Both the position numbers and the translations under genes were made by a program. Positions 8,470 to 51,313 of a stretch of DNA of 64,000 bases are shown here, in pieces. Positions within the stretch are counted from its first letter, which is position 1; each line of letters starts with the position of its first letter. Source of the DNA: a virus (taxonomy: Duplodnaviria > Heunggongvirae > Uroviricota > Caudoviricetes); the IMG/VR virus record IMGVR_UViG_2654587674_000003; one strand, written 5' to 3'. The notes beneath the pieces are model-generated. The model saw only the letters and a list, made by a program, of their open reading frames with translations. It ran no database searches and had not been told where the DNA came from.

Positions 8470-9291
8470 TTAATAATGGTTAGCCATCCATTCAGATCTA
8501 ATTGATGGGATAAACTCTCTATTGAGAAAGGGGACGTACAGTGTGGTTGTCACATCTGCACCCTCCTTAGCGTTTTTGCAATGTTGCGGAGGCAGGATCA
8601 GTCGGCTTGAGCCTCTCTCAATAGACATTTTCAGGCCGTGGCGTAGGTCTTTTTGCATAAGCTGTATGCGAGCCACAAGCGGGGTAAATTCGGTTTCAAG
8701 CGCCATGCTTTCAATGATGTCAAAGCGTCGGTTAGCGGCCTGCGTGAAGTCCTCCGGATCGTCTTCAAGCGCCGTGCATAAAGCGAGTTCAGCAATTCGC
8801 ATCCGTGCCACGCCAGCACTGTATTCGGGGCTTTTCATATCAGGAAGTGACGCTCGCATTCGTTCAAGGAGTTCCGCGCCTTTCCCGGTTAATGGTTTAA
8901 GTATCCAGTCAGTTGGTACTCCATTTACTGGTACGTTGGTTTTCACGTAAGGAGGTACAGTGAGTATTTCTACTGTTTGGGCCAGGTCGCTCAGGTTAAT
9001 ATCTGCATGATGCGTATTACCGCAGTGACTGCACTCATAGGAGTAGGTCATTACTGCATCGGGGCGCGAATTAACAAATATCCACCAAAGGGCAGTTCTG
9101 CGATCCTGGACTGTCCAGTAAGCACTGTCGTTAATTTCACCATCCTGCATAGAGTTAAGGTACTCTGTAGTAGTTGCCTCATCTTCTGCCGGGTTCAGGT
9201 CAGAATATTTCAGCGCATCCTTCACGGTAGGGGCGTGGAACTGAATTTCTGTCTCAGGACGGGAAGGCAATGGGAATTTTGGAATGTTCAA
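8470..9291 (-). CDS. Hypothetical protein upstream of tape measure (possible tail assembly protein)
   Basis: 273-aa ORF, TTG start with GGAGGA 5 nt upstream; position only. Confidence 0.4.
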   Translation of the reverse strand: MNIPKFPLPSRPETEIQFHAPTVKDALKYSDLNPAEDEATTTEYLNSMQDGEINDSAYWTVQDRRTALWWIFVNSRPDAVMTYSYECSHCGNTHHADINLSDLAQTVEILTVPPYVKTNVPVNGVPTDWILKPLTGKGAELLERMRASLPDMKSPEYSAGVARMRIAELALCTALEDDPEDFTQAANRRFDIIESMALETEFTPLVARIQLMQKDLRHGLKMSIERGSSRLILPPQHCKNAKEGADVTTTLYVPFLNREFIPSIRSEWMANHY

Positions 9292-40858: not shown

Positions 40859-40907
40859 GATGGCAGTCTCTTACTTTTCAACGATTTTTCTATGATTGAT
40901 CAAAATG

Positions 40908-40936
40908 GTTAGATATTCAAAATTGATTTTCTAACA
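40908..40936. promoter_or_regulatory. Operator pair GTTAGA-n16-TCTAAC upstream of the Ref-like gene
   Basis: Inverted half-sites with the same spacing as at 28985-29027 and 46161-46188. Confidence 0.5.
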
Positions 40937-40978
40937 TAAAACATTAATATCATTCCTGATAACTGTTTGGAGGACATG

Positions 40979-41131
40979 ATGCTTATAGCTTTAAGTGCGA
41001 TCCACCAGCCATCTGTGAATGAGATTGGCCTGTTCTATGTGTTGGTTTTCGGGGCGTTGGCGCTACTTGAGCTTGGTATTGAGCTTTTCGCAGTGCTTAT
41101 GTTTTGCGTCACGATTCTGGGGAAATTTTGA
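40979..41131 (+). CDS. 50-aa hydrophobic membrane peptide
   Basis: GGAGG 5 nt upstream; stop overlaps the next ATG (TGATG); sequence MLIALSAIHQPSVNEIGLFYVLVFGALALLELGIELFAVLMFCVTILGKF. Confidence 0.35.
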   Translation: MLIALSAIHQPSVNEIGLFYVLVFGALALLELGIELFAVLMFCVTILGKF

Positions 41132-41754
41132 TGGTGAAACGTGTTTTGAAAATTTACATCGCGGGGCCGATGACTGGTTATCCAGATTACAACCGTGCGG
41201 CGTTTAATGCGAAAGCGAGCGAGCTGATGTCTGAAGGGCATATCGTTCTGAATCCAGCTGTGTTACCTGGTGGCCTTTGCCAGAGTGAATACATGGATAT
41301 TTGCCTGGCAATGGTGCGTTCTGCTGATGCGATCTATCTGCTCAATCAATGGGAAGAATCGGTTGGTGCTCGCGCAGAGCACGCGCTGGCTGAAAAGCTG
41401 GGGCTGACTGTAATTTATGAGTCACAAACCAACATTGAATGCCAGGTTGCTCCGCATATTTACCGTGAACTGGTAAATGCGTTACGTGATGTTGCTATTG
41501 AATGTCACGGCACGGATCAGCTTCGCGCCCGCTTAAGCAAAACCCTTTCCAGTTACCTGTCTTTGGCTGAAGGATACAACCTCCGGCAGCGGAGAATGGT
41601 CAAATTAATCACGCGTTTATCTCAATCCCTGGCAAATGCCGAACCAACTAATCCGCTACCTAATGACGCAATGAATTACCTGAAGTCATGCGGCGTTGTT
41701 TCTGAAGATGCAGTTCGTTTTGTGGAGTTTATGTCTCAGAGGATGTCAGCGTGA
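41131..41754 (+). CDS. Nucleoside 2-deoxyribosyltransferase-like (DUF4406-type) protein with C-terminal extension
   Basis: N-terminal KIYIAGPMTGYPDYN pattern; C-terminal motif PHIYRELVNALRDVAIECHGTDQLRARLS shared with the 538-aa protein at 49697. Confidence 0.5.
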   Translation: MVKRVLKIYIAGPMTGYPDYNRAAFNAKASELMSEGHIVLNPAVLPGGLCQSEYMDICLAMVRSADAIYLLNQWEESVGARAEHALAEKLGLTVIYESQTNIECQVAPHIYRELVNALRDVAIECHGTDQLRARLSKTLSSYLSLAEGYNLRQRRMVKLITRLSQSLANAEPTNPLPNDAMNYLKSCGVVSEDAVRFVEFMSQRMSA

Positions 41755-42068
41755 GCTGGCGGGGATGGGGAAGGGCGGAAATCATGATACTCCGCCAGTG
41801 CGCCGGGACTATGACAGTCGTGAGTATTGGGAGGCTGATCGGGCGTACCGGTAGTGCTGTCAGAACCAAAGCGCGGCAACTGCGGATCTGCATGATTCTG
41901 AAAGGAGACTTTCACCCGTCAGCCAAATACCGGCAGGGCGATATAGAACTGGCACGGCAGCTTCATCGGTGTGGTGTTCCCCGCCGTGAGATCGCAGAAA
42001 AACTCGAAATGCCCTTGAGCATGATTAATCAGTACGTTTATTTCGAAAGGAGAGTACATGAAGTCTGA
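41751..42068 (+). CDS. Small DNA-binding protein with two HTH-like segments
   Basis: GTG start overlapping upstream stop; 105 aa. Confidence 0.45.
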   Translation: MSWRGWGRAEIMILRQCAGTMTVVSIGRLIGRTGSAVRTKARQLRICMILKGDFHPSAKYRQGDIELARQLHRCGVPRREIAEKLEMPLSMINQYVYFERRVHEV

Positions 42069-42561
42069 AGGTTTAACGCCAGCACAACTGGCAGAGCGTA
42101 ACGCTGAGTATGTAACGGAAATTTCCCGACTTGAGAAAGAACGCTCGGCGCTGGCGGCGGAGAATGAACTGGCTCGTAAGGCAGTTCAGGCATTCTGCGA
42201 TGTTGTTGGCGACAACACCGAGGTTATCGCTGAGGAGGTTGGGCGAGATGGCGTTCTGGTTATTTTGGAGGCCATGAAGGCAACAGGAAATATGCCAGCC
42301 ACCGATGCTTTCCTGGCTGAAATTCGTGCGGAGGCTCGCAACGAGGGGATTAACTATACCGCAAGCCGTCTTGCTGCTGCTTTCAACCACGGATTTATCA
42401 ATAAGTCTTTACGTGAAGTTTTCGACGTTACACGCATGATTCTGTCAGCGAAAGAAGAGTTGGCTAATGAACCGCACCCGATTGATGGCCTGTCCGGTGA
42501 ATATGCGGAGAAATCCCTTGAAGAATGGGCGGAACAGATTCGCAAAGGAGCTGACAAGTGA
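42058..42561 (+). CDS. Mosaic paralog family member 1 (Ea22-like type), coiled coil + conserved C-terminal module
   Basis: LAAENELARK coiled coil; C-terminal ATDAFLAEIRAEARNEG...AEQIRKGADK. Confidence 0.5.
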   Translation: MKSEGLTPAQLAERNAEYVTEISRLEKERSALAAENELARKAVQAFCDVVGDNTEVIAEEVGRDGVLVILEAMKATGNMPATDAFLAEIRAEARNEGINYTASRLAAAFNHGFINKSLREVFDVTRMILSAKEELANEPHPIDGLSGEYAEKSLEEWAEQIRKGADK

Positions 42562-42968
42562 AGAAGATGATTTTTGTCGCGGCATTGTTGGTGAATATCC
42601 AACAAGTGCATGCTTCAGCAGCTATTGTAGCCTCTACCGCCGCGACTACGGCTGCTGTAGCTGCTGCGAACTCTGCGAATATCGCAAACCAACAGGCACA
42701 GCGTGCTGCTAATGCATCAGCCAGCGTTCACTCAATCACCATTAAGAGCAGTAAGCAAAATCTGGGATTCATAACGTGCGGCACGCGTTCTAATGAAGCT
42801 GTAGGTTCACTTGGATGTACGGTATATGGGGGTAGTGAGAATAGAGAAATTCCATGGAAAACGTGGCCCGGATACGTTCTTGGCTCGAAGCTCCCGGCCA
42901 GTTATGAAGTAAACGCCGTATCGTTTGATCACTATAACGGCGTGGCAACGGTCTATTTTGCATATTGA
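42558..42968 (+). CDS. Small secreted protein (136 aa) with signal peptide and two Cys
   Basis: MKKMIFVAALLVNIQQVHA signal; embedded within the paralog array. Confidence 0.5.
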   Translation: MKKMIFVAALLVNIQQVHASAAIVASTAATTAAVAAANSANIANQQAQRAANASASVHSITIKSSKQNLGFITCGTRSNEAVGSLGCTVYGGSENREIPWKTWPGYVLGSKLPASYEVNAVSFDHYNGVATVYFAY

Positions 42969-42976
42969 GGCTCCGC

Positions 42977-43762
42977 ATGAAATTCTCCAAATTTTCTGAG
43001 TTGGTGAATCGTATTTTGTCCAACAACCACAGCCATCGTCGCGATATGGATGTAACGATCGTTGTTCATTCGCCTGGCAGCATTGGTTCAACACCCTCAG
43101 TTGAGGTTCAGTCAATTCACGCTGGTTTTGATTGGGATTCCGGGAAAGTGCTGATTTTCCCAGCACAGCCACTGACCACGCTAACACCAGAACAGATTAC
43201 TGATATTACTGATAGTGTGCGCAAAGGTCAGTCCTGGCACGCATATCAGGAATACAAGAAGCATAAAGAGCAGTTGGAAAAATTATCGATTGAACTTGAT
43301 ACCGCAAAACAGCGCATTGCAGAGCTGGAGGGTAATCGCGCGGCGCTGGCTGCGGAGAATGCGAGACTGAAGGCGATATGTGAGGATCGCCGCACGTTCA
43401 TTATGAATGGCGTGCAGCTTGGTTTTATCAAGGTGCCAACAGTGGAAATAGATCCAGCTCTTGAAACAATTCGTATCGCCCTATCACCACAAAAAACCAC
43501 TCCTGCGACCGACACTTTCCTAGATGAAGTGAAGACTGAAGCACGCAAGGAGGGCGCTTACTTTGTGGCGAATAGAATGCTGGCTGCCTGGGAAGCTGGT
43601 TTTATTGATGATACTGCGAAGAACGCCGCGGATATTGCCCGGATGATTCTTACCTCTACTGAGTTTATGGCTAATGCGCGGGAAGGCGATTTTGACCGCT
43701 CATTCTCTGATGGTGTTCTCGAAGATATCGCTGAACAGCTTCGCAAAGGAGGCAGCCAGTGA
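42977..43762 (+). CDS. Mosaic paralog family member 2
   Basis: ALAAENARLK; C-terminal ATDTFLDEVKTEARKEG...AEQLRKGGSQ; ATG 42977 preferred. Confidence 0.5.
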   Translation: MKFSKFSELVNRILSNNHSHRRDMDVTIVVHSPGSIGSTPSVEVQSIHAGFDWDSGKVLIFPAQPLTTLTPEQITDITDSVRKGQSWHAYQEYKKHKEQLEKLSIELDTAKQRIAELEGNRAALAAENARLKAICEDRRTFIMNGVQLGFIKVPTVEIDPALETIRIALSPQKTTPATDTFLDEVKTEARKEGAYFVANRMLAAWEAGFIDDTAKNAADIARMILTSTEFMANAREGDFDRSFSDGVLEDIAEQLRKGGSQ

Positions 43763-44400
43763 GCGAGCTTTACTATCAGACGTTACGTGAACGTTTTTCA
43801 CCGAAACCAGCGCCTAAATGCTCTGTTTGTGGCGAGGAAATGTCAATGCAGCGCATATCTGGATCACATGTTGTTTATGCCTGTTCCGGCATGGAGGACG
43901 ACGGATGCTTCAAAACTGGACGAACTTATGCTGACGAGCATTACAAAAAATCGCGCATAACAGTAGTTGATGATAGCGATCCTGATGTGATTGAACTGCT
44001 GGAAGAGAACATGGAGATGGCTCTAACGCTTGAGAAGCTGCGTGTTGAGCTGGAGGCTGCTAAACAGCGTATTGCCGAATATGAAAGCAATTGCGGGGCG
44101 ATGGTGGCGGAATGCCAAAGCAAAAAAGCAGCTCTTGAGGCAATTCTTAGCCATTGCCCAATTAATCATCCAGATATAGACATCGCATGTATAGCGAACA
44201 TCGCTCATAACGAATTAGGCGGGGCGAAAAGCACTACATCTAAGGCATACCTTGTAGAAATACAGGCACAAGGGGTGGAGGCATTCGCTTTGACGATGCG
44301 CGATACCGGAGATGATCCATTTTTTGATTCCGTTGCTTCTGCTTGCGCGGATGCAGCTGATAGGTTCGCTGCCCAGCTTCGAAAAGGAGGCAAACAGTGA
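43759..44400 (+). CDS. Mosaic paralog family member 3 with N-terminal Cys4 ribbon
   Basis: GTG start overlapping upstream stop; CSVCGEEM...YACSG; ends AAQLRKGGKQ. Confidence 0.5.
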   Translation: MSELYYQTLRERFSPKPAPKCSVCGEEMSMQRISGSHVVYACSGMEDDGCFKTGRTYADEHYKKSRITVVDDSDPDVIELLEENMEMALTLEKLRVELEAAKQRIAEYESNCGAMVAECQSKKAALEAILSHCPINHPDIDIACIANIAHNELGGAKSTTSKAYLVEIQAQGVEAFALTMRDTGDDPFFDSVASACADAADRFAAQLRKGGKQ

Positions 44401-44645
44401 GTAATACCGCACGACTACAGCTTGGTTTTTTACCGCTATCAAAAACCATCGTGTTGGCAAAAATGCGTGACTTAGGGGATGGAACAAAACGTCGTGTCGG
44501 CAATGATCGCGGTCGTGATGTAACCAACGAGGCCGCACAACTCGTTTGGCATCTAGTCATGGCTGAAGGCGGTGAAATTAATTGGGAGCTGGATGATGGT
44601 TCTCGCATGGTATTAAAGGCAGAAAAGCAGGAGCCACCACAGTGA
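44397..44645 (+). CDS. Hypothetical protein (82 aa)
   Basis: GTG start overlapping upstream stop. Confidence 0.4.
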   Translation: MSNTARLQLGFLPLSKTIVLAKMRDLGDGTKRRVGNDRGRDVTNEAAQLVWHLVMAEGGEINWELDDGSRMVLKAEKQEPPQ

Positions 44646-44935
44646 ATATCGACACCACGATAACGATTGATACGGCCCTAAATACCGGTCTGGCACTTCT
44701 CGGTTGGCTTTACATCATGTCCAGTACATGGCGATGGCTGGGTTCCATTTTCCTGAAACAGTGGAAAAAACGGCGCAAACAGGAATTACGCCAGAAGGCA
44801 TTAGAAGCGTTCTATGACGCATTTGAACTTAGCCGCATTGAACCAGGCACAACAGCCAGGATAGCGACAAAAGGCGACCTGATGATAGTGATGTTCCGAC
44901 AGGAGAAAGCAAATGGCAGCAAAGCGAATGACTAA
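44642..44935 (+). CDS. Hypothetical small membrane protein (97 aa, one TM)
   Basis: GTG start; hydrophobic segment LALLGWLYIMSSTW. Confidence 0.4.
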   Translation: MNIDTTITIDTALNTGLALLGWLYIMSSTWRWLGSIFLKQWKKRRKQELRQKALEAFYDAFELSRIEPGTTARIATKGDLMIVMFRQEKANGSKAND

Positions 44936-45137
44936 TCGCGAACTTGTTGATGCCGCGATTGAACTTGCTGGCGATTTTTATTCCATGATGGGGTACACGC
45001 ATCGCCCCGGCTTCAAATATTGGGAGTCTCCGCACCCGCAAGAGCAACGGGTATTTCAAATGGCCTGTCGCGCTTTTGAAGTTATTCGCGGTTCTGATGT
45101 GATGGACGCGGTTGCTGATTTGGAGGATGAAGAGTGA
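44913..45137 (+). CDS. Hypothetical acidic protein (74 aa)
   Basis: ORF overlapping neighbours. Confidence 0.4.
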   Translation: MAAKRMTNRELVDAAIELAGDFYSMMGYTHRPGFKYWESPHPQEQRVFQMACRAFEVIRGSDVMDAVADLEDEE

Positions 45138-45445
45138 ACACAATTAAAGAAATGCCGGTAGAACGTGATGAATATGGCTGCTGGACACATCCGGAGTATG
45201 AAAAGTTTTGCGCAGGTCGTGAATATATATCCACTGAGGAATTTGACGCCTGGATGAAGGAAAATAATCTTCAGTGGACTATTCGCAGTATGGATGAAGA
45301 TGATTTTGGTCTGGACGCAGCTGGTCCCGATATTGCCGCCTGGGAACCGGAGCGACCAGAGGGTGAAGGCTGGTTTGTTGGCTCTATTCATGACACTGAA
45401 GATGGTCCGGTTTGTATCTGGCTGCGGGAGAAGGTTGCCGCATGA
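45134..45445 (+). CDS. Hypothetical protein (103 aa)
   Basis: GTG start; ATGA overlap with phosphatase start. Confidence 0.45.
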
Positions 45446-46134
45446 TCCAGGCTATGCATGAAATGAATTTATATAGCCGTATTGATGGTTCTGGCTACAG
45501 AAACATATGGGTTGTTGGTGATCTGCATGGTTGCTACACCAGACTGATGTCCGAACTCCATCGTGTGGATTTTGACCCGACGCAGGATTTACTGATATCG
45601 GTTGGCGACCTTATCGATCGCGGTACTGAAAATGTCGAATGTCTGGAACTATTGCAGATGCCCTGGTTCAGGGCAGTAATGGGGAACCATGAGCGGTTGA
45701 TGCTTGATGCGTTAAGTCCTGATGGCAACGTGAATAACTGGCTAATGAATGGCGGACAATGGTTCTTCATGCTGGACACTGATCAGGAAATATTAGCCAA
45801 GGCGCTGGTGGAGCTGGTAAAGCGTCTGCCATATATCATTGAGTTGAACACCGGGCATGAAACTATCGTTATAGCCCATGCCGACTATCCAGGTGGAGAG
45901 TACCAGTTCGGTAAGGATGTGTCGTTTTTTGATGTTGTCTGGTCGCGCAGTCGCGTCGGTGATTCGATAGATGGCATTGGTGGAGAAATCACAGGCGCAG
46001 ATCGCTTTATCTTTGGGCACACACCGGTACGAAGACCAAAAGCATACTGGAATCAGCACTACATAGACACGGGCGCGGTTTTTTGCGGAAATCTGACGCT
46101 AATGCAGGTGAAGGGAGGGCAGCTTAAAGTCTGA
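45442..46134 (+). CDS. Ser/Thr protein phosphatase (lambda-PPase / PrpA-like metallophosphatase)
   Basis: GDLHG, GDLIDRG, GNHE motifs. Confidence 0.8.
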
Positions 46135-46160
46135 TCAAATCATTTACGCACTCAAAATGC

Positions 46161-46188
46161 GTTAGAACATTGATTTTAGTTTTCTAAC
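46161..46188. promoter_or_regulatory. Operator pair GTTAGAAC-n15-TTCTAACA upstream of the 46232 gene
   Basis: Same half-site family and spacing as sites at 28985 and 40908. Confidence 0.5.
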
Positions 46189-46231
46189 ATATTATTTTAC
46201 CGCTCGGAACAAAACAGAGTCGGTATACATT

Positions 46232-47227
46232 ATGAGTGCAATAATCACACCTCATTTCGTGAACGGAGCTGGTGTGGCTGTCTTTCCGGTAGACAAGCCC
46301 ACCAGTAACTACATTGGCGCAGGCCGCCGTTTCATTATCTCCCCACTTCCGCGTGAACAGGCTGAAAACACGCCAGATGGCGTAGTGGATCTGAACTATT
46401 CGCTGGTTGCCAACCAGTCTCTGAAACCGTTTTTTCAAAGCGAGCGCGTATTTAACGCGTTGGGCGGTGAAGATTCGCTTGTTCATTGGGTAAGTTCCAA
46501 TATCCACGATTGCCAGGCGCACGATAAGCGCGATTGCAGCCACCAGCTAACCACTCATTTCTATAACGGCTCTGCCGTTCGCCTGTGCTGGAAGCATGAT
46601 GCGGAATACATGATGAAGGGGTACAGCAAGCTGGACGACCAGTTATCCCTGAATCGTGCCAACTGGGTTATGAACTGGGCTGCGAGCGAGTTAAAACTAC
46701 CGCCAGAACGCGATCTGAGCATGGTTGAACTCACTTTTTGGGCCATTCGCCGGAATCTGAAAGATGAGCTGCCAGATGAAGCCGGTCGCATTGCATTTTG
46801 TCAGCCAAAAACTGAAATCCCTACCGGTACGCTGAAAGAATCAGATATCACCTGGGAGCACAGTACCCGCGAGCTGGTGGACATAACCGCAGAGCAGATC
46901 GTCAACCTGTCTGTAGATGAGGATTCCGGCCTGCTTTATATGCGCCGACCAAAAGCGGTCCTCGGTAAAAGCCCGGCTTATCTCCGGTTTGTGGTTTCTC
47001 GTCCGTGCATCGGATGCGGTGGCAAAGTTAACCACCCGTTCATGTACCGCGCCCGCTCGTTAAACGAACACGACCGCTGGGCTGTTCCTCTTTGCGATGA
47101 CTGCGCCAGAAGCGCAGAAAACGATGTCCGGGCATGGGAAAAAGCACATGGCATACGCCTTTACGTAGCCGCTAACCAGCTTTTTGACTTCGCCATCGAG
47201 CGCGGAGTGATCACTTTCAATAACTGA
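46232..47227 (+). CDS. Hypothetical phage protein with C-terminal Cys-rich Zn-binding module (331 aa)
   Basis: CIGCGG...CDDCARS. Confidence 0.5.
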   Translation: MSAIITPHFVNGAGVAVFPVDKPTSNYIGAGRRFIISPLPREQAENTPDGVVDLNYSLVANQSLKPFFQSERVFNALGGEDSLVHWVSSNIHDCQAHDKRDCSHQLTTHFYNGSAVRLCWKHDAEYMMKGYSKLDDQLSLNRANWVMNWAASELKLPPERDLSMVELTFWAIRRNLKDELPDEAGRIAFCQPKTEIPTGTLKESDITWEHSTRELVDITAEQIVNLSVDEDSGLLYMRRPKAVLGKSPAYLRFVVSRPCIGCGGKVNHPFMYRARSLNEHDRWAVPLCDDCARSAENDVRAWEKAHGIRLYVAANQLFDFAIERGVITFNN

Positions 47228-47243
47228 TGAGGTGGATCAAAAA

Positions 47244-47933
47244 ATGAAAGAACGCGGGATGATTTTTAACGATGAGATGGTCAGGGCCATCCTCGAAGGA
47301 AGGAAGACGCAGACTCGCCGACCTGTAAAAAATGTCAGGGCCGATAACTGCCTGGTTATCCGTAAACCGACAAAGAAACGCAATGGTATCTATACCCACG
47401 TTATGGATGCACCTGAACATGGTTTATGCCCGTTCGGTAACGTTGGTGATCGCATATGGGTCCGTGAGGCGTGGGCGATATTAGGCAATGAGGATGGTTG
47501 CAGTGTGGACTGGAACGACAACCTTTGTCGTGGCGATGAGAAGAACGCAGCAAGGATTTATCGGGCCAGTTGTGAGCAAAAGCCGGGTGATTACGGCTTG
47601 TGGTCGATACCCGATGATGCCGACTGGAAACCTCACACTGTGAATGAAAAATTTGATGGCGGGTGGTGTCCATCAATTCACATGCCGCGCTGGGCATCGC
47701 GCATTCTTCTGGAAATTACCAACGTGCGCGTTGAGCGGTTGAACGATATCAGCGAATGCGATGCAAGGGCTGAGGGCGCACCAACAGAATCGACCCTCAT
47801 TGGCGATAAGCATTACCCAAGTTTCCGTAGCCTATGGAAATCAATTTATGGCGAAGATAGTTGGAACGCTAATCCTTGGGTGTGGGTAATCGAGTTTAAG
47901 CGTATTCAGGGGGCAACCAGTGAGCAAAATTAA
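47244..47933 (+). CDS. ASCH/PUA-like domain phage protein
   Basis: ATG 47244 with GAGGTGG RBS; N-terminal MIFNDEMVRAILEGRKTQTRRP pattern. Confidence 0.45.
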   Translation: MKERGMIFNDEMVRAILEGRKTQTRRPVKNVRADNCLVIRKPTKKRNGIYTHVMDAPEHGLCPFGNVGDRIWVREAWAILGNEDGCSVDWNDNLCRGDEKNAARIYRASCEQKPGDYGLWSIPDDADWKPHTVNEKFDGGWCPSIHMPRWASRILLEITNVRVERLNDISECDARAEGAPTESTLIGDKHYPSFRSLWKSIYGEDSWNANPWVWVIEFKRIQGATSEQN

Positions 47934-48102
47934 CTATCAAGAACTGCGCGAGGCGGCGGAACAGGCAACGCAAGATGAATGGGTAGCATATATTTTGCCG
48001 GTCATAACGGCATTTATCCTGCGCGCACGTCTGAGGGTAGGCATTGCGGATACTTTATTGACTGGCCTGGCGTCTGTCAGGGGCGGGAGAGCATCAGCAT
48101 GA
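47920..48102 (+). CDS. Short ORF (60 aa) whose N-terminus parallels that of the 48509 gene; possible remnant
   Basis: MSKINYQELREAAE versus MSKIDYQKLREIAE; translationally coupled both sides. Confidence 0.3.
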   Translation: MSKINYQELREAAEQATQDEWVAYILPVITAFILRARLRVGIADTLLTGLASVRGGRASA

Positions 48103-48512
48103 GCATCAGAACCTACGCAGTGAATTGCAATGACGCATGGCTAAACACCGAAGGTGATGACATCTCCGGCTCATACGTTAAGTACAAAGACCATCAGGAA
48201 GTGGTTGCCGCTCTTGAGGCCAGGTGCGCGGCGCTGGCAGCGGAGAATGCGGCGCTTAAACAGTCGGAGAAGGAATTTAATAACTTCTGTCGTCAGGAGT
48301 ACTACGGTTGGGAGGACAACTTCACGGAAACCCCAGCTACCGACGCTCTCCTGGCTGAAGTACGTGCGCAGGGGGTGGATATGGCTCGTAACGCGATGAT
48401 TGATTTTGTTGATGGTGAAGTTGGGCCAAACAAGAACGTTCCGGGGCTGATTAGAGGCGCAGAGATATGCGTAAGTATTGCTGAACAGCTTCGCGAAGGA
48501 GGCAACCAGTGA
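48099..48512 (+). CDS. Mosaic paralog family member 4
   Basis: ATG 48099 with GGGAGAG; AALAAENAALK; C-terminal ATDALLAEVRAQG...AEQLREGGNQ. Confidence 0.5.
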   Translation: MSIRTYAVNCNDAWLNTEGDDISGSYVKYKDHQEVVAALEARCAALAAENAALKQSEKEFNNFCRQEYYGWEDNFTETPATDALLAEVRAQGVDMARNAMIDFVDGEVGPNKNVPGLIRGAEICVSIAEQLREGGNQ

Positions 48513-48955
48513 GCAAGATTGATTATCAAAAGCTTCGTGAAATCGCTGAAAAAACAAAAATTGCTGGTGAAGCACCTGTAATGCCTTTCGATCAGCGAAT
48601 TAATGCGCTTAACGATTTTATGAAGCACTTTTCGCCAGATATCGCGCTGGCATTGTTGGATGAACGGGAAAGAAACCAGCAATACATCAAACGCCGCGAC
48701 CAGGAGAACGAGGATATTGCGCTAACGGTAGGGAAGTTGCGCGTTGAGCTTGAGGCAGAAAAACAGCGGGCAAAGGATCTGTTTATGGAAAATACTCGGC
48801 TTAAGTCAGGTATAGCCGGTCTGATACACCTCGGTATTCGATATGCAGATGTTGATGTCATGAAAATTGCTGGAGATGCCCAGCTTTCTACCCCATGCAC
48901 TGACAGCATCATAAACAGCATTGCAACAGGCATTCGCATCAACGGAGGTGAGTAG
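48509..48955 (+). CDS. Coiled-coil protein sharing helical segments with the paralog family (148 aa)
   Basis: GTG start overlapping upstream stop; LTVGKLRVELEAEKQRAKD. Confidence 0.45.
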   Translation: MSKIDYQKLREIAEKTKIAGEAPVMPFDQRINALNDFMKHFSPDIALALLDERERNQQYIKRRDQENEDIALTVGKLRVELEAEKQRAKDLFMENTRLKSGIAGLIHLGIRYADVDVMKIAGDAQLSTPCTDSIINSIATGIRINGGE

Positions 48956-49127
48956 TGCGTGTGGCATGTATTGGCTTGTTACCGTACCCGACTCGTTTTT
49001 GGGCTTCTGCGCTAATTGCAAAGCCGTATGTCCTGATGGCTGACAACATCATCCCGGCACCAAAGCGCCGCCATACCGGTATTGCAGCGGCACGACGAGC
49101 AGCAAAGAGACGCAGGAGAGCAAAGCG

Positions 49128-49304
49128 ATGAAAAACCGTAAGGCAAAACGACTTTTTTTACAGCGACCTGTGCGTGTGGTGGAGCTGGTTATTAGCAACC
49201 ATAAGATAGCGGTACTCCATCCATTTGGTCAGGTGGCTTTTGCCGCAAAGCGTAAGCCTACTGCGTCACAGAACAGGCGGAAGAAAGGGTACGCTGTAAG
49301 ATGA
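49128..49304 (+). CDS. 58-aa basic small protein (MKNRKAK...)
   Basis: Start sequence ATGAAAAACCGTAAGGCAAAA duplicated at 49301; stop overlaps next ATG; below track cutoff. Confidence 0.25.
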   Translation: MKNRKAKRLFLQRPVRVVELVISNHKIAVLHPFGQVAFAAKRKPTASQNRRKKGYAVR

Positions 49305-49489
49305 AAAACCGTAAAGCAAAGATTCTGTTAGTTCGTAGAAACGCTCCTGGCGTCTGGCAGTGGGTGAGACTCAGCAACCGACGGATGGGGTTGATGAAAT
49401 ATTACGGGATGATGGATTGTGGTTTTTGCAAAAAGCCCAGCGCGGCGCAAAACCGCTGGAAAAACCACTTGCGCACTAAAGGAGAGTGA
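49301..49489 (+). CDS. 62-aa basic small protein (MKNRKAK... paralog)
   Basis: Tandem paralog of the preceding ORF. Confidence 0.3.
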   Translation: MKNRKAKILLVRRNAPGVWQWVRLSNRRMGLMKYYGMMDCGFCKKPSAAQNRWKNHLRTKGE

Positions 49490-49490
49490 T

Positions 49491-49700
49491 ATGGCTATTG
49501 CCGCAAGTTACACAATGCATCTCTATTGTGACTGCCGCCAGTGTACGGAAGGTGTATATCCAGTGCCAGACTTCGGTGAGTATATAGGTACGTCATGGGC
49601 TGGCTGTGCAAAAGAGGCGCGCAAGGATGGCTGGCGAATAAGCAAAGACAAAACGCGTGCTTTTGCGCCCGGGCATAAAGTTTTGAGGATTAACAAATGA
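49491..49700 (+). CDS. Cys-rich small protein (69 aa)
   Basis: ATG 49491 with GGAGAG RBS; ATGA overlap with the next gene. Confidence 0.35.
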   Translation: MAIAASYTMHLYCDCRQCTEGVYPVPDFGEYIGTSWAGCAKEARKDGWRISKDKTRAFAPGHKVLRINK

Positions 49701-51313
49701 CCACTATTACCAGAGAACAAGCTCTGAAAATTATTGAGGCAGCCGATGAGGTTATTAGTGCGCTTGCCGGAACTAACGAGGATGTTCACCCTGGTAGCGA
49801 TAACATGCTACGCCTGTGGGATGACCTGAATGACCGTTACGCGCCGCCGGAAGTTGTGCGTGAGCTGGCACGAATTGCACTGGCATCGCTGGAAGCAGAA
49901 CCAGTTAAACGAGTTAACTCAGATCAGATGCGCCGAGTCTGCTTAGAAGCTAATCGCCATTTAGATAAATATGACGCGATGGCGAAAGAGGTAAATAAGT
50001 TGCTTGGACGCATCGCCCCGCCAGCACCGGTAGTGCCTGAAGAAGCAACTCCGGAAAACGTAGAAATGCTCTCTGGCTATGTTTCAACGTACAAATTAAC
50101 CGATAGCGAGCGCGATATTGCTGCCGAAATATGGAACGCCTGCCGCGCCGCCATGCTTCAGTCCGGAAACTTTCGGGAAAACAAGAATTCGTCAACCAAT
50201 AATTTTCGGGAAATCGCGGAAACGTCAACCAGCTATCCGGCAATTCCTAGTGAGGTGTTGTCCGCAATCCTGAAGGTTGCCAGGATTCGTGCCGATTTCG
50301 ATGATTTTGACGGTGACAGGCGAGGTATCGGTGATTGTCTGGATGAGGCCGAGCAAGAGCTTATCGTTACCATTAACAAATATGCCAGTCAGTTGGCAGC
50401 AGAACCGATAGCGGCTAATGACGTTCGAGAGCAGCAGACAGCCGTTCCGCCAGTTCCAGAAATACAGGCTGATGTCGCGCAAGCAATTGAAAATCTCAAG
50501 CAGAAGTTAGTGGAATGCAATCGCTATAACTACTGCGCAGATGCAGTTAAAGGCGTAGAGGATGCCAGCCGCGTCTTGGCACTCCAAAATCAAAATATGT
50601 CAGCACCGGTAACGCCGGAGGCCATTGAAAACGCAATTGAATATATCCGCAGTATCGCTTTTCACATCGATGAAGACGATTACCACGGCAAGCATATTGC
50701 GTATTTCATGCGACAAGCATTGGCCTGGCTGGAAGGGCATTCATGCAGCGACGACAGGCTGGGTAAGGCCGACAATCAACCCGCATCTGGTAACCAGGCT
50801 GCCGAATCCAATCGCGGTAATGAGTGGACCGGCAATCCTGATATTGATAACGCCATCATCATGCTCGACCGCATAGATACGGCGGAAAGTTGCGATGATG
50901 ACCGTATTGAGGCCGTTAAGGCTGTGTTGCGTAGACTGGCAGGCAACTATCCGGATATTCCGGATAGTTCGGTGCCAGCGCCAGGAAAGGGCGTCACCGG
51001 TGAACGTATCCGCATTAAGCCGCATGTTTATCGCGAACTGGTTAACCGTCTCCACGATACAGCGATCAAGTGTGCTGGCACCCAGCAATTACGAGAAAGA
51101 ATTAGCCGTGTTTTGGGCGACGTTATTACACCAGATCATCATAAACAAGCCGAGAAAAGTGGCCTGGAAAGGTGTCGCCTTGAGGCGGCATTAAACATTA
51201 AGCCGGGGCATACGCTTGGCATTATTGATGCACTATTGGTTCATAAGATGGCCAGGGCTTTATTGCCGCTGGTGGCTGAAAAGCATGAGGTGGACCATGC
51301 CAACGAAAGCTGA
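49697..51313 (+). CDS. Large hypothetical protein (538 aa)
   Basis: C-terminal PHVYRELVNRLHDTAIKCAGTQQLRERIS shared with the DUF4406-like protein. Confidence 0.5.
   Translation: MTTITREQALKIIEAADEVISALAGTNEDVHPGSDNMLRLWDDLNDRYAPPEVVRELARIALASLEAEPVKRVNSDQMRRVCLEANRHLDKYDAMAKEVNKLLGRIAPPAPVVPEEATPENVEMLSGYVSTYKLTDSERDIAAEIWNACRAAMLQSGNFRENKNSSTNNFREIAETSTSYPAIPSEVLSAILKVARIRADFDDFDGDRRGIGDCLDEAEQELIVTINKYASQLAAEPIAANDVREQQTAVPPVPEIQADVAQAIENLKQKLVECNRYNYCADAVKGVEDASRVLALQNQNMSAPVTPEAIENAIEYIRSIAFHIDEDDYHGKHIAYFMRQALAWLEGHSCSDDRLGKADNQPASGNQAAESNRGNEWTGNPDIDNAIIMLDRIDTAESCDDDRIEAVKAVLRRLAGNYPDIPDSSVPAPGKGVTGERIRIKPHVYRELVNRLHDTAIKCAGTQQLRERISRVLGDVITPDHHKQAEKSGLERCRLEAALNIKPGHTLGIIDALLVHKMARALLPLVAEKHEVDHANES

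Follow-up and report, generated by a model that had tools for sequence, protein, structure and literature searches.

The window analysed here is a stretch of 64,000 nucleotides (nt) from the IMG/VR virus record IMGVR_UViG_2654587674_000003 (Caudoviricetes). It contains, at about 41.1-51.3 kb, an operon in which all genes lie on the plus strand and stops and starts overlap from gene to gene. Two variable slots in this operon, A (42058-44400) and B (47232-48955), hold five paralogs of the Ead/Ea22-EaE family, one of them disrupted. Escherichia phage D6 aligns with 55% of the 8.5 kb around these genes, at 95% identity, and there are matches to further P1-like phages. E. coli plasmids of about 90 kb match the region as well, the best being pGF4-B (95.9% identity, 85% coverage); a coverage of at least 80% is reached in only 2 of 5426 complete E. 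coli genomes. A Ref-family nuclease gene lies upstream on the opposite strand, and hot, humD, phd/doc and a terminase-like open reading frame (ORF) lie downstream. Judged by these matches and flanks, the window is a P1/D6-like phage-plasmid, and the paralogs sit in its accessory operon.

Five paralogs with a shared C-terminal module

The family genes, named by their start positions, are the following.

42058 to 42561, plus strand: g42058, 167 amino acids (aa), with a short head, the ALAAEN joint, a linker, the TPATDAFLAE joint, long core variant 1 (NEGINYTASRL...) and the tail AEQIRKGADK before the stop; matches phrog_614 (E 2.3e-54) and phrog_368 (E 6.5e-39).

42965 to 43762, plus strand: g42977, with an N-terminal phrog_6026 domain, a coiled coil, the ALAAEN joint, a linker, the TPATD joint and long core variant 2 (P22 EaE type); matches phrog_368 (E 1e-60).

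43759 to 44400, plus strand: g43759, 213 aa, with an Ead/Ea22 head (MSELYYQTLRE), a Cys-rich segment, a coiled coil (KLRVELEAAKQRIAE), a short core and the tail AAQLRKGGKQ before the stop; matches PF13935 (49.5 bits) and, over its full length, phrog_368 (E 8e-53).

47920 to 48512, plus strand: one Ead/Ea22-EaE gene split into an ORF at 47920-48102 (60 aa) and an ORF at 48099-48512 (137 aa, g48099), as seen in DNA alignments to pGF4-B, p2_035125 and pCREC455-3; the head matches PF13935 (35.7 bits).

48509 to 48955, plus strand: g48509, 148 aa, with a lambda-Ea22-like head and a coiled coil (LLDERERNQQYIKRRDQENEDIALTVGKLRVELE), its C-terminal module reduced to joint and tail (TPCTDSIINSIATGIRINGGE before the stop); matches PF13935 (79.5 bits).

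The start of g42977 is either TTG at 42965, as in relatives annotated by the Prokaryotic Genome Annotation Pipeline (PGAP), or ATG at 42977. An initial annotation, made from the sequence alone, had described four genes (42058, 42965/42977, 43759 and 48099) as sharing a C-terminal module, and this is borne out by pairwise BLASTP scores of 25.8-72.8 bits and by matches of the four ORFs to phrog_368 at E 1e-26 to 1e-60. In an all-against-all comparison of the operon proteins the strongest pairs were g42058-g42977 (72.8 bits), g42977-g43759 (41.6), g43759-g48509 (38.9) and g42977-g48509 (33.1), and weaker ones were g42058-g48099 (27.3), g47920-g48509 (26.9) and g42977-g48099 (25.8). The profile phrog_368, which is independent of the window paralogs, matches every family ORF, from E 2.7e-09 for the 60-aa fragment to E 1e-60. 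Bounded by the TPATDAFLAEVRA joint and an (A/D)QLRKGG tail, the module is present in four window ORFs, where alignments of the stretch TPATDAFLAEVRA ... AEQLRKGGxQ distinguish two long and two short variants. The module had been said to end uniformly in AEQ(L/I)RKGG.Q; the tail is indeed shared, while g42058 ends in RKGADK and g48099 in REGGNQ, and the module start of g43759 is weak (TTSKAYLVEIQAQ).

The C-terminal 87 aa of g42977 are 84.5% identical to P22 EaE and 94% identical to the proteins of phages SE1 and ST160, and the central region of g48509 matches the lambda Ea22 translation. The gathering score of the Pfam family PF13935 (Ead_Ea22), 27 bits, is exceeded by g48509, g43759 and the 47920 fragment. 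No match to PF13935 was found for g42058, g42977 or the 48099 fragment, so these belong to the family only through the shared joints and C-terminal module; g42058 matched nothing else in Pfam either. NCBIfam gave no match for any Ea22/EaE-like ORF of the block, and the PADLOC defence-system models matched 0 families among 10 block proteins at E <= 0.01. The label given by PGAP to homologues in related plasmids is 'ead/Ea22-like family protein'. At the end of g48509 (TPCTDSIINSIATGIRINGGE and stop, window 48890-48957) the second joint is fused straight to the tail, the core being missing.

Joints, exchangeable parts and recombination

Head, ALAAEN joint, linker, TPATDAFLAE joint, core and tail follow one another in constant order in an alignment of 32 family members. 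The joints and tails, which provide the sole DNA similarity between the window paralogs, map as follows.

42122 to 42168, 43317 to 43363 and 48205 to 48251, plus strand: ALAAEN joint, a short island of DNA shared by paralogs that have diverged elsewhere (repeat family D2, 68-79% identity).

42295 to 42334, 43502 to 43541 and 48333 to 48372, plus strand: TPATDAFLAE joint (repeat family D3, 65-85% identity).

43718 to 43791, plus strand, with others at 42517 to 42561, 44356 to 44400 and 48468 to 48541 and a remnant at 47908 to 47968: tail-to-head junction (...GAACAGCTTCGCAAAGGAGGCAGCCAGTGAGCGAGC...), made up of the module end, the Shine-Dalgarno sequence AAGGAGG, the GTGA start/stop overlap and the next gene's Ead head (repeat families D1, D4 and D5; codons of 87-94 distinct relatives).

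The coiled-coil pieces are direct repeats at the DNA level (families D2 and D6). Their reuse, claimed earlier for six ORFs, holds for g42058, g42977, g43759, g48099 and g48509 and fails for the 60-aa ORF at 47920, which lacks them; ALAAEN occurs in g42058, g42977 and g48099, and VELEAAKQR in g42977, g43759 and g48509. The three-part build published for the family, with a short variable N-terminus, a central coiled coil and an exchangeable C-terminal domain (PMC10834534), recurs in the window alignments.

The 32-member alignment contains the same linker with different cores and the same core with different linkers and heads. For example, the linker ELARKAVQAFCDVVGDN... precedes a long core in g42058 and a short core in two relatives (P0145 and P0153), and the linker ALKQSEKEFNNFCRQEYYGWEDNFTE precedes a short core in g48099 and long core 1 in another (P0121). 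A rough clustering of 64 distinct genes distinguished 7 types of core and 22 or more of linker, 5 linkers being joined to more than one core; these counts of module combinations are lower bounds, because an overly narrow pattern for the ALAAEN joint missed 34 of 98 proteins, and the head clusters, obtained by single linkage, are not reliable.

Matches of high identity between the region and 85 related loci had 326 ends, and these clustered, as judged by eye, at joints, tails and gene boundaries. At the TPATDAFLAE joints there were 30 ends in 42280-42299, 22 in 43480-43519 and 3 in 48320-48339; at the ALAAEN joints they piled up in 42140-42179, 43320-43379 and 48240-48259, and 25 more fell at the gene boundary in 43760-43799. 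Six related replicons keep the anchor genes (DUF4406, a DNA-binding protein, DUF4752, two small ORFs, phosphatase and DUF968), and their two slots hold differing numbers and kinds of Ead/Ea22-like and other small genes. Nor is the block invariant among the 5426 complete E. coli genomes: the slot A arrangement occurs in 3 of them and that of slot B in 8, and pieces of the two slots are found in 1255 and 2638, respectively, mostly in chromosomal prophages. We infer that homologous recombination at the short conserved islands would be the simplest explanation of this mosaic.

Within the long core variants the ratio of nonsynonymous to synonymous substitution rates (dN/dS) is 0.08 (809 pairs, median dS 0.77) and 0.12 (178 pairs). 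The cores are therefore conserved as proteins, and their diversity comes from module exchange rather than from accelerated substitution. A dedicated diversification machine, such as a diversity-generating retroelement or a shufflon-like system, was considered and set aside, the variation being whole-module exchange between replicons with purifying selection inside the modules; there was no reverse-transcriptase or invertase match among the proteins scanned, the block not having been searched systematically for such genes.

The module tail as the ribosome-binding site of the next gene

All four module genes end in ...GTGA, with a GTG overlapping the TGA, which agrees with the overlapping starts noted initially. 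Their 'RKGGxQ' ends (RKGADK in g42058, REGGNQ in g48099), read with the stop codon, are encoded as CG[CA] [AG]AA GGA G.. ... [AC]AG TGA, so that AAGGAG(G) is followed after 7 nt by the GTG overlapping the TGA. The same holds widely among relatives, with the proviso that the counts come from related sequences and are not independent events: an RTGA end is found in 94 of 94 distinct related genes, and 80 of these 94 have AAGGAG at a distance of exactly 7 nt before the start. The Lys codon of the tail is AAA in 85 cases and AAG in 0, and the Gly codon is GGA in 84 of 87, GGA being a rare codon in E. coli. Upstream of these the codons are free, with GCG, GCC or GCT for Ala and CGC, CGT or CGA for Arg, and the residue after Lys-Gly may be G, V, A, S or C, its codon almost always beginning with G and thus keeping AAGGAG. 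For the tail stretch AAAGGAGG of g42977 and g43759, an example of a synonymous form is AAGGGTGG. An ORF of 38-285 aa starts at the overlapped RTG in 96 of 96 cases, about 41 of which are Ead-head genes.

Given the codon constraint from Lys onwards, the fixed spacing and the downstream ORF in every case, the module end thus doubles as the next gene's ribosome-binding site and start. As read from these codons, the 'RKGGxQ'-stop tail encodes AAAGGAG and the RTGA start-stop overlap, and the genes would be translationally coupled through this Shine-Dalgarno sequence and the overlapped RTG. Reading the conserved ...AEQLRKGGxQ as a protein-level C-terminal motif, for example a docking or degradation tag, seems highly improbable to us: AEQLR is conserved as protein while its codons vary, and a K/RGE end has been noted across Ea22 proteins, its significance unknown (PMC7093339), yet from the Lys codon on it is the DNA that is conserved, down to the first base of a codon whose residue varies and the 7-nt distance to the overlapped RTG. 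The ribosome-binding reading also offers an explanation of that K/RGE end.

The tails of lambda ea22 (ATTCGCATCAAAGGAGAGTGA, ending ...IRIKGE before the stop) and of g48509 are homologous to the module tail DNA. In lambda ea22 the tail DNA ...GGCATTCGCATCAAAGGAGAGTGA (lambda locus 548-580) places AAGGAG 1 nt from the overlapped GTG, which is followed by an ORF of only 5 codons; judged from this arrangement, the lambda AAGGAG looks like a relic. Together, tail and Ead head form a 60-66-nt island (families D4 and D5) that can serve as a seed for tandem arrays.

The split gene at 47920-48512

The initial annotation had counted six genes in the family. The ORFs at 47920 and 48099 are, by alignment, the halves of one Ead/Ea22-EaE gene that now forms two coupled ORFs; there are therefore five family genes, not six. 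An intact homologue of 195 aa is carried by plasmid pCREC455-3 (99% identity). Relative to it the window has a 1-nt deletion after 47999 in a G run (GCCGGGT to GCCGGT) and a 6-nt insertion near 48096-48101, which creates an ATGA; this ends the shifted N-terminal ORF and at the same time supplies an overlapping ATG (48099) in the original frame. Only the first 28 residues of the 60-aa ORF, those of the Ead head, are native, the remainder being out-of-frame sequence. The frameshift and insertion at 47990-48105 may reflect a genuine split, a pseudogene or, in the G run, an error of sequencing.

Just upstream, a copy of the junction (GGGGGCAACCAGTGAGCAAAAT..., window 47900-47968) lies out of frame at the 3' end of the phrog_874 gene (47232-47933). 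It would appear from this that the Ead head at 47920 formerly followed an EaE-type module, which was replaced through recombination inside the junction.

Relation to known Ead/Ea22 and EaE proteins

The diversifying module family likened at first to those of lambdoid early-left regions can thus be named: three ORFs pass PF13935, the module is that of P22 EaE, relatives in lambdoid phages adjoin int, xis, abc2, erf, kil and cIII, and the mosaicism is published (PMC10834534, PMC7093339). What the initial annotation missed were the family names Ead/Ea22 and EaE, the nature of the replicon, which is P1/D6-like and not a lambdoid phage, and the fact that the KGG.Q end mostly represents the ribosome-binding site for the gene that follows. 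Both the family and its mosaic nature were already on record, and the window is a new instance in a phage-plasmid; modest additions are the map of the joints, the ribosome-binding site within the tail, the copy with a frameshift and the explicit link in architecture to Oad2 set out below.

The shared module corresponds to the C-terminal domain of P22 EaE, with the 84.5% identity given above, and lies outside Pfam coverage. It is also found in SE1, ST160, epsilon15 and many Shiga toxin (Stx) phages of types Stx1a and Stx2a. A module profile collected 2992 clusters of proteins grouped at 90% identity, named 'Eae protein' or 'ead/Ea22-like' in their sources and spread over Escherichia, Salmonella, Enterobacter, Citrobacter, Klebsiella and others. 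Among 79 viral loci with the module, 30 adjoin int, xis, abc2, erf, kil or cIII, and 20 lie in D6-type operons. Compared with P22 EaE (the 'Eae protein' or 'Eae-like protein' of P22-like, epsilon15 and Stx phages), the window genes have the same joint and tail but other heads and linkers, and they include four core variants, one of them of P22 type.

Lambda Ea22 consists of an N-terminus, a tetrameric coiled coil and an exchangeable C-terminal domain; in Stx phages ea22 is mosaic, with up to 3 variants per genome, and the protein has a pro-lysogenic phenotype whose target is not known (PMC10834534, PMC7093339, PMC8614690). Lambda Ea22 and P22 Ead (PF13935) share the head MS.I.YQ.LRE and coiled coil with g43759, g48509 and the 47920 head, are mosaic with interchangeable C-terminal domains as in the window, and have homologous tail DNA (lambda ATTCGCATCAAAGGAGAGTGA). 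These genes and those of the window are alike accessory, of early-operon type and non-essential. On the other hand, the window is a P1/D6-like phage-plasmid and not a lambdoid exo-xis region, its operon holds five paralogs instead of one to three, and g42058 and g42977 have no Ead head. The C-terminal domain of lambda Ea22 is a mixed alpha/beta dimer by nuclear magnetic resonance, whereas those of the window are predicted, with low confidence, to be all-helical and have no PDB sequence match. AlphaFold2 gave an all-helical model of full g42058 (32 sequences) with a long helix at residues 8-50 and a mean predicted local distance difference test score (pLDDT) of 57.9, and a model of the g42977 C-terminal domain (69 sequences) with four helices and a pLDDT of 65.2, both of low confidence.

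In HK446, HK75, HK97 and many P22-like phages a DUF2737 gene stands directly before the Oad2/EaE-type gene, near abc2 and erf (HK446 8509-9197; HK75 40-683). DUF2737 homologues lie within 4 kb of the module in 23 of the 79 viral loci and are absent from the window operon.

An architectural link to the nuclease inhibitor Oad2

The gp27 protein of phage HK446, Oad2, is reported in a preprint to bind the P2 OLD abortive-infection nuclease and to inhibit it; the protein is described there as a relative of P22 EaE that in some cases is joined to Ead/Ea22, and as having in HK75 a 54%-identical homologue that does not inhibit OLD (bioRxiv 10.64898/2026.07.10.737580). The layout of Oad2, namely head, LAAENA joint, linker, ETPATDAFLAEVRAQ joint, core and a DQLRKGGNQ tail before the stop, is that of the window genes. 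Oad2 aligns throughout, matching the module profile at 32 bits and g48099 at 43% identity over 65 aa, the similarity to the window lying mostly in joints and tail, and an Oad2-type head is found on relatives (P0143 and P0183) that bear the same short core as g48099. Oad2 relatives also occur on plasmids of about 101-120 kb, several of which, such as pLF82, we take to be SSU5-like phage-plasmids.

Oad2 and the HK75 protein (gp28) are near-identical from the head to the LAAENA joint and then differ wholly in linker and core, the second joint and the tail being kept. Because they share the head but not the linker and core, their difference in activity would map to the shuffled segments. The HK75 protein, reported as inactive, has exactly the linker found in the 48099 part of the split gene.

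Other genes of the operon

The small genes interleaved with the paralogs were largely read correctly at first sight: the secreted protein, the phosphatase and the small proteins are a signal-peptide-like protein at 42558, a Ser/Thr phosphatase, and small DUF4752 and DUF7446 proteins.

42558 to 42968, plus strand: 136-aa interleaved protein with a signal-peptide-like N-terminus (MKKMIFVAALLVNIQQVHA/SAA; signal peptide predicted from reading the sequence), whose GTG start overlaps the g42058 stop; matches phrog_8805 (E 7e-86, function unknown).

44397 to 47933, plus strand: conserved anchor genes between the slots, encoding DUF7446, DUF4752, two small hypothetical proteins, a Ppp-like Ser/Thr phosphatase, a DUF968/PdcB-like protein and the phrog_874 protein, as annotated in six related plasmids and phage D6 and by Pfam and NCBIfam matches.

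The phosphatase (45412/45442-46134) exceeds the Pfam Metallophos cutoff and matches NF008516 at E 8e-83 with 277.7 bits, under that model's 326-bit cutoff. The accessory operon of phage D6 (orf88-orf104) and its P1 counterpart (ppp, pdcB, pmgU, hot, humD) have the same flanks as the window, with ref upstream on the opposite strand and hot, humD and phd/doc downstream, the same anchor genes (DUF4406, DUF4752, phosphatase and DUF968/PdcB-like) and Ead/Ea22-like genes in the same two slots. D6 differs in that its Ead/Ea22-like genes number two and belong to other variants; of the 8.5-kb region only 55% can be aligned.

Between ref (minus strand) and the operon lies an AT-rich divergent region (40860-41130), with a hydrophobic ORF of 50-54 aa (40967/40979-41131) that is the equivalent of D6 orf88. 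Neither a match to the P1 C1 operator consensus nor a good sigma-70 consensus was found in this region; a search for the C1 operator consensus over the whole window gave no match, and a sigma-70 scan upstream of the operon gave no convincing promoter, with fewer matches than in shuffles. The DUF4406 protein at the operon start (41104-41754) and a 538-aa protein near its end (49697-51313) have a 40-residue segment in common (HIYRELVNALRDVAIECHGTDQLRARLSKTL versus HVYRELVNRLHDTAIKCAGTQQLRERISRVL, 52% identity, 52 bits), a further shared module outside the Ea22 family. Two adjacent, translationally coupled ORFs, 49128-49304 (58 aa) and 49301-49489 (62 aa), encode small, basic proteins that both start with MKNRKAK; they are paralogs (37% identity, 35.8 bits), and their 5' ends are 95% identical over 21 nt.

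Discussion

Taken as a whole, the block is probably best explained as a set of Ead/Ea22-EaE paralogs with exchangeable parts in a phage-plasmid accessory operon, their likeliest role being, more tentatively, that of inhibitors of immune proteins. In this explanation the head, the coiled coil ending in the ALAAEN joint, a variable linker, the TPATDAFLAEVRA joint, a variable all-helical core and the AEQLRKGG tail would be interchangeable parts set in constant order. Through recombination at the islands, phages, prophages and phage-plasmids would swap these parts with one another and build tandem arrays, the variable linker and core would bind and block particular host or prophage immune proteins, and several paralogs would widen the range of defences overcome. 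That the family proteins act as oligomers to inhibit immune proteins of hosts or prophages, linker and core giving the specificity, is a plausible proposal that we hold only tentatively, because it rests on homology to one member, characterized in a preprint, whose core is not in the window.

Several points weigh against this explanation. The function of Oad2 cannot be transferred directly to the window proteins: the Oad2 core (ERTDFIGRIEWIIRNECNPDKTETILNELQSFS) and linker are matched by no window core or linker, and the 54%-identical homologue is inactive. The Oad2 evidence is a single preprint, and the only experiments on the family besides it, those with lambda and Stx Ea22, point to a role that is pro-lysogenic and not anti-defence (PMC7093339). 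The structure models are of low confidence (pLDDT 58 and 65); with them a Foldseek search against the PDB gave nothing at E <= 0.001, and a PDB sequence search with g42977 and the module profile gave chance-level matches only. One paralog is frameshifted, so that not all copies need be functional, and the clustering of breakpoints was judged against the repeat map, with no formal null model and with relatives that are phylogenetically non-independent.

The main rival is a pro-lysogenic role, which may not exclude the anti-defence one. The paralogs would then modulate the decision between lysis and lysogeny, here between plasmid maintenance and lytic growth: as tetrameric coiled coils whose C-terminal domains engage host regulatory or stress proteins, they would favour the quiescent state and would not be anti-immune. 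The pro-lysogenic phenotype is published for lambda and Stx Ea22 (PMC7093339), and the operon contains a Ppp/NinI-like phosphatase and other small genes of the lambda exo-xis type. That phenotype, however, was measured on proteins with other C-terminal domains (the lambda domain, DUF551 and others), and no molecular target is known. It could itself come from blocking abortive infection, as OLD also inhibits lambda lysogenization (bioRxiv 10.64898/2026.07.10.737580), and five effector variants in one operon are hard to square with a single regulatory decision. We consider this role, taken as the whole explanation, unlikely.

A bolder version of the anti-defence explanation, which we rate as somewhat less likely still, would make the operon a combinatorial anti-immunity array. 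Standard connectors would let any linker and core plug in behind any oligomerizing head, stacked in coupled tandems, and each paralog would neutralize a different OLD-type ABC-ATPase/TOPRIM protein (OLD, Gabija, PARIS, Septu or Lamassu) or another defence; on this view Ea22 would be pro-lysogenic as a side effect of preventing abortive infection.

Finally, the genes might be recombination debris or selfish cassettes with little or no function, the islands being recombination linkers only, in keeping with the frameshifted copy, the out-of-frame junction remnant at the end of the 47232 gene, the lost core of g48509, the non-essential nature of lambda ea22 and an arrangement that differs in almost every relative, but the purifying selection in the core variants (dN/dS 0.08-0.12 in hundreds of pairs, with dS up to about 0.8), the thousands of family clusters across Escherichia, Salmonella and other genera, the retention of the translational coupling signals and the demonstrated activity of one member, Oad2, make this quite improbable.

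The Ead/Ea22/EaE genes are among the commonest unexplained genes of enterobacterial prophages, and about half of complete E. coli genomes contain pieces of the present block. That the tail can be read as a ribosome-binding site is a warning against taking such C-terminal motifs as features of the protein. If it is true that linker and core choose the target, as the comparison of Oad2 with its HK75 homologue suggests, the five-gene array and its relatives would amount to a catalogue of natural immune inhibitors with built-in module boundaries.

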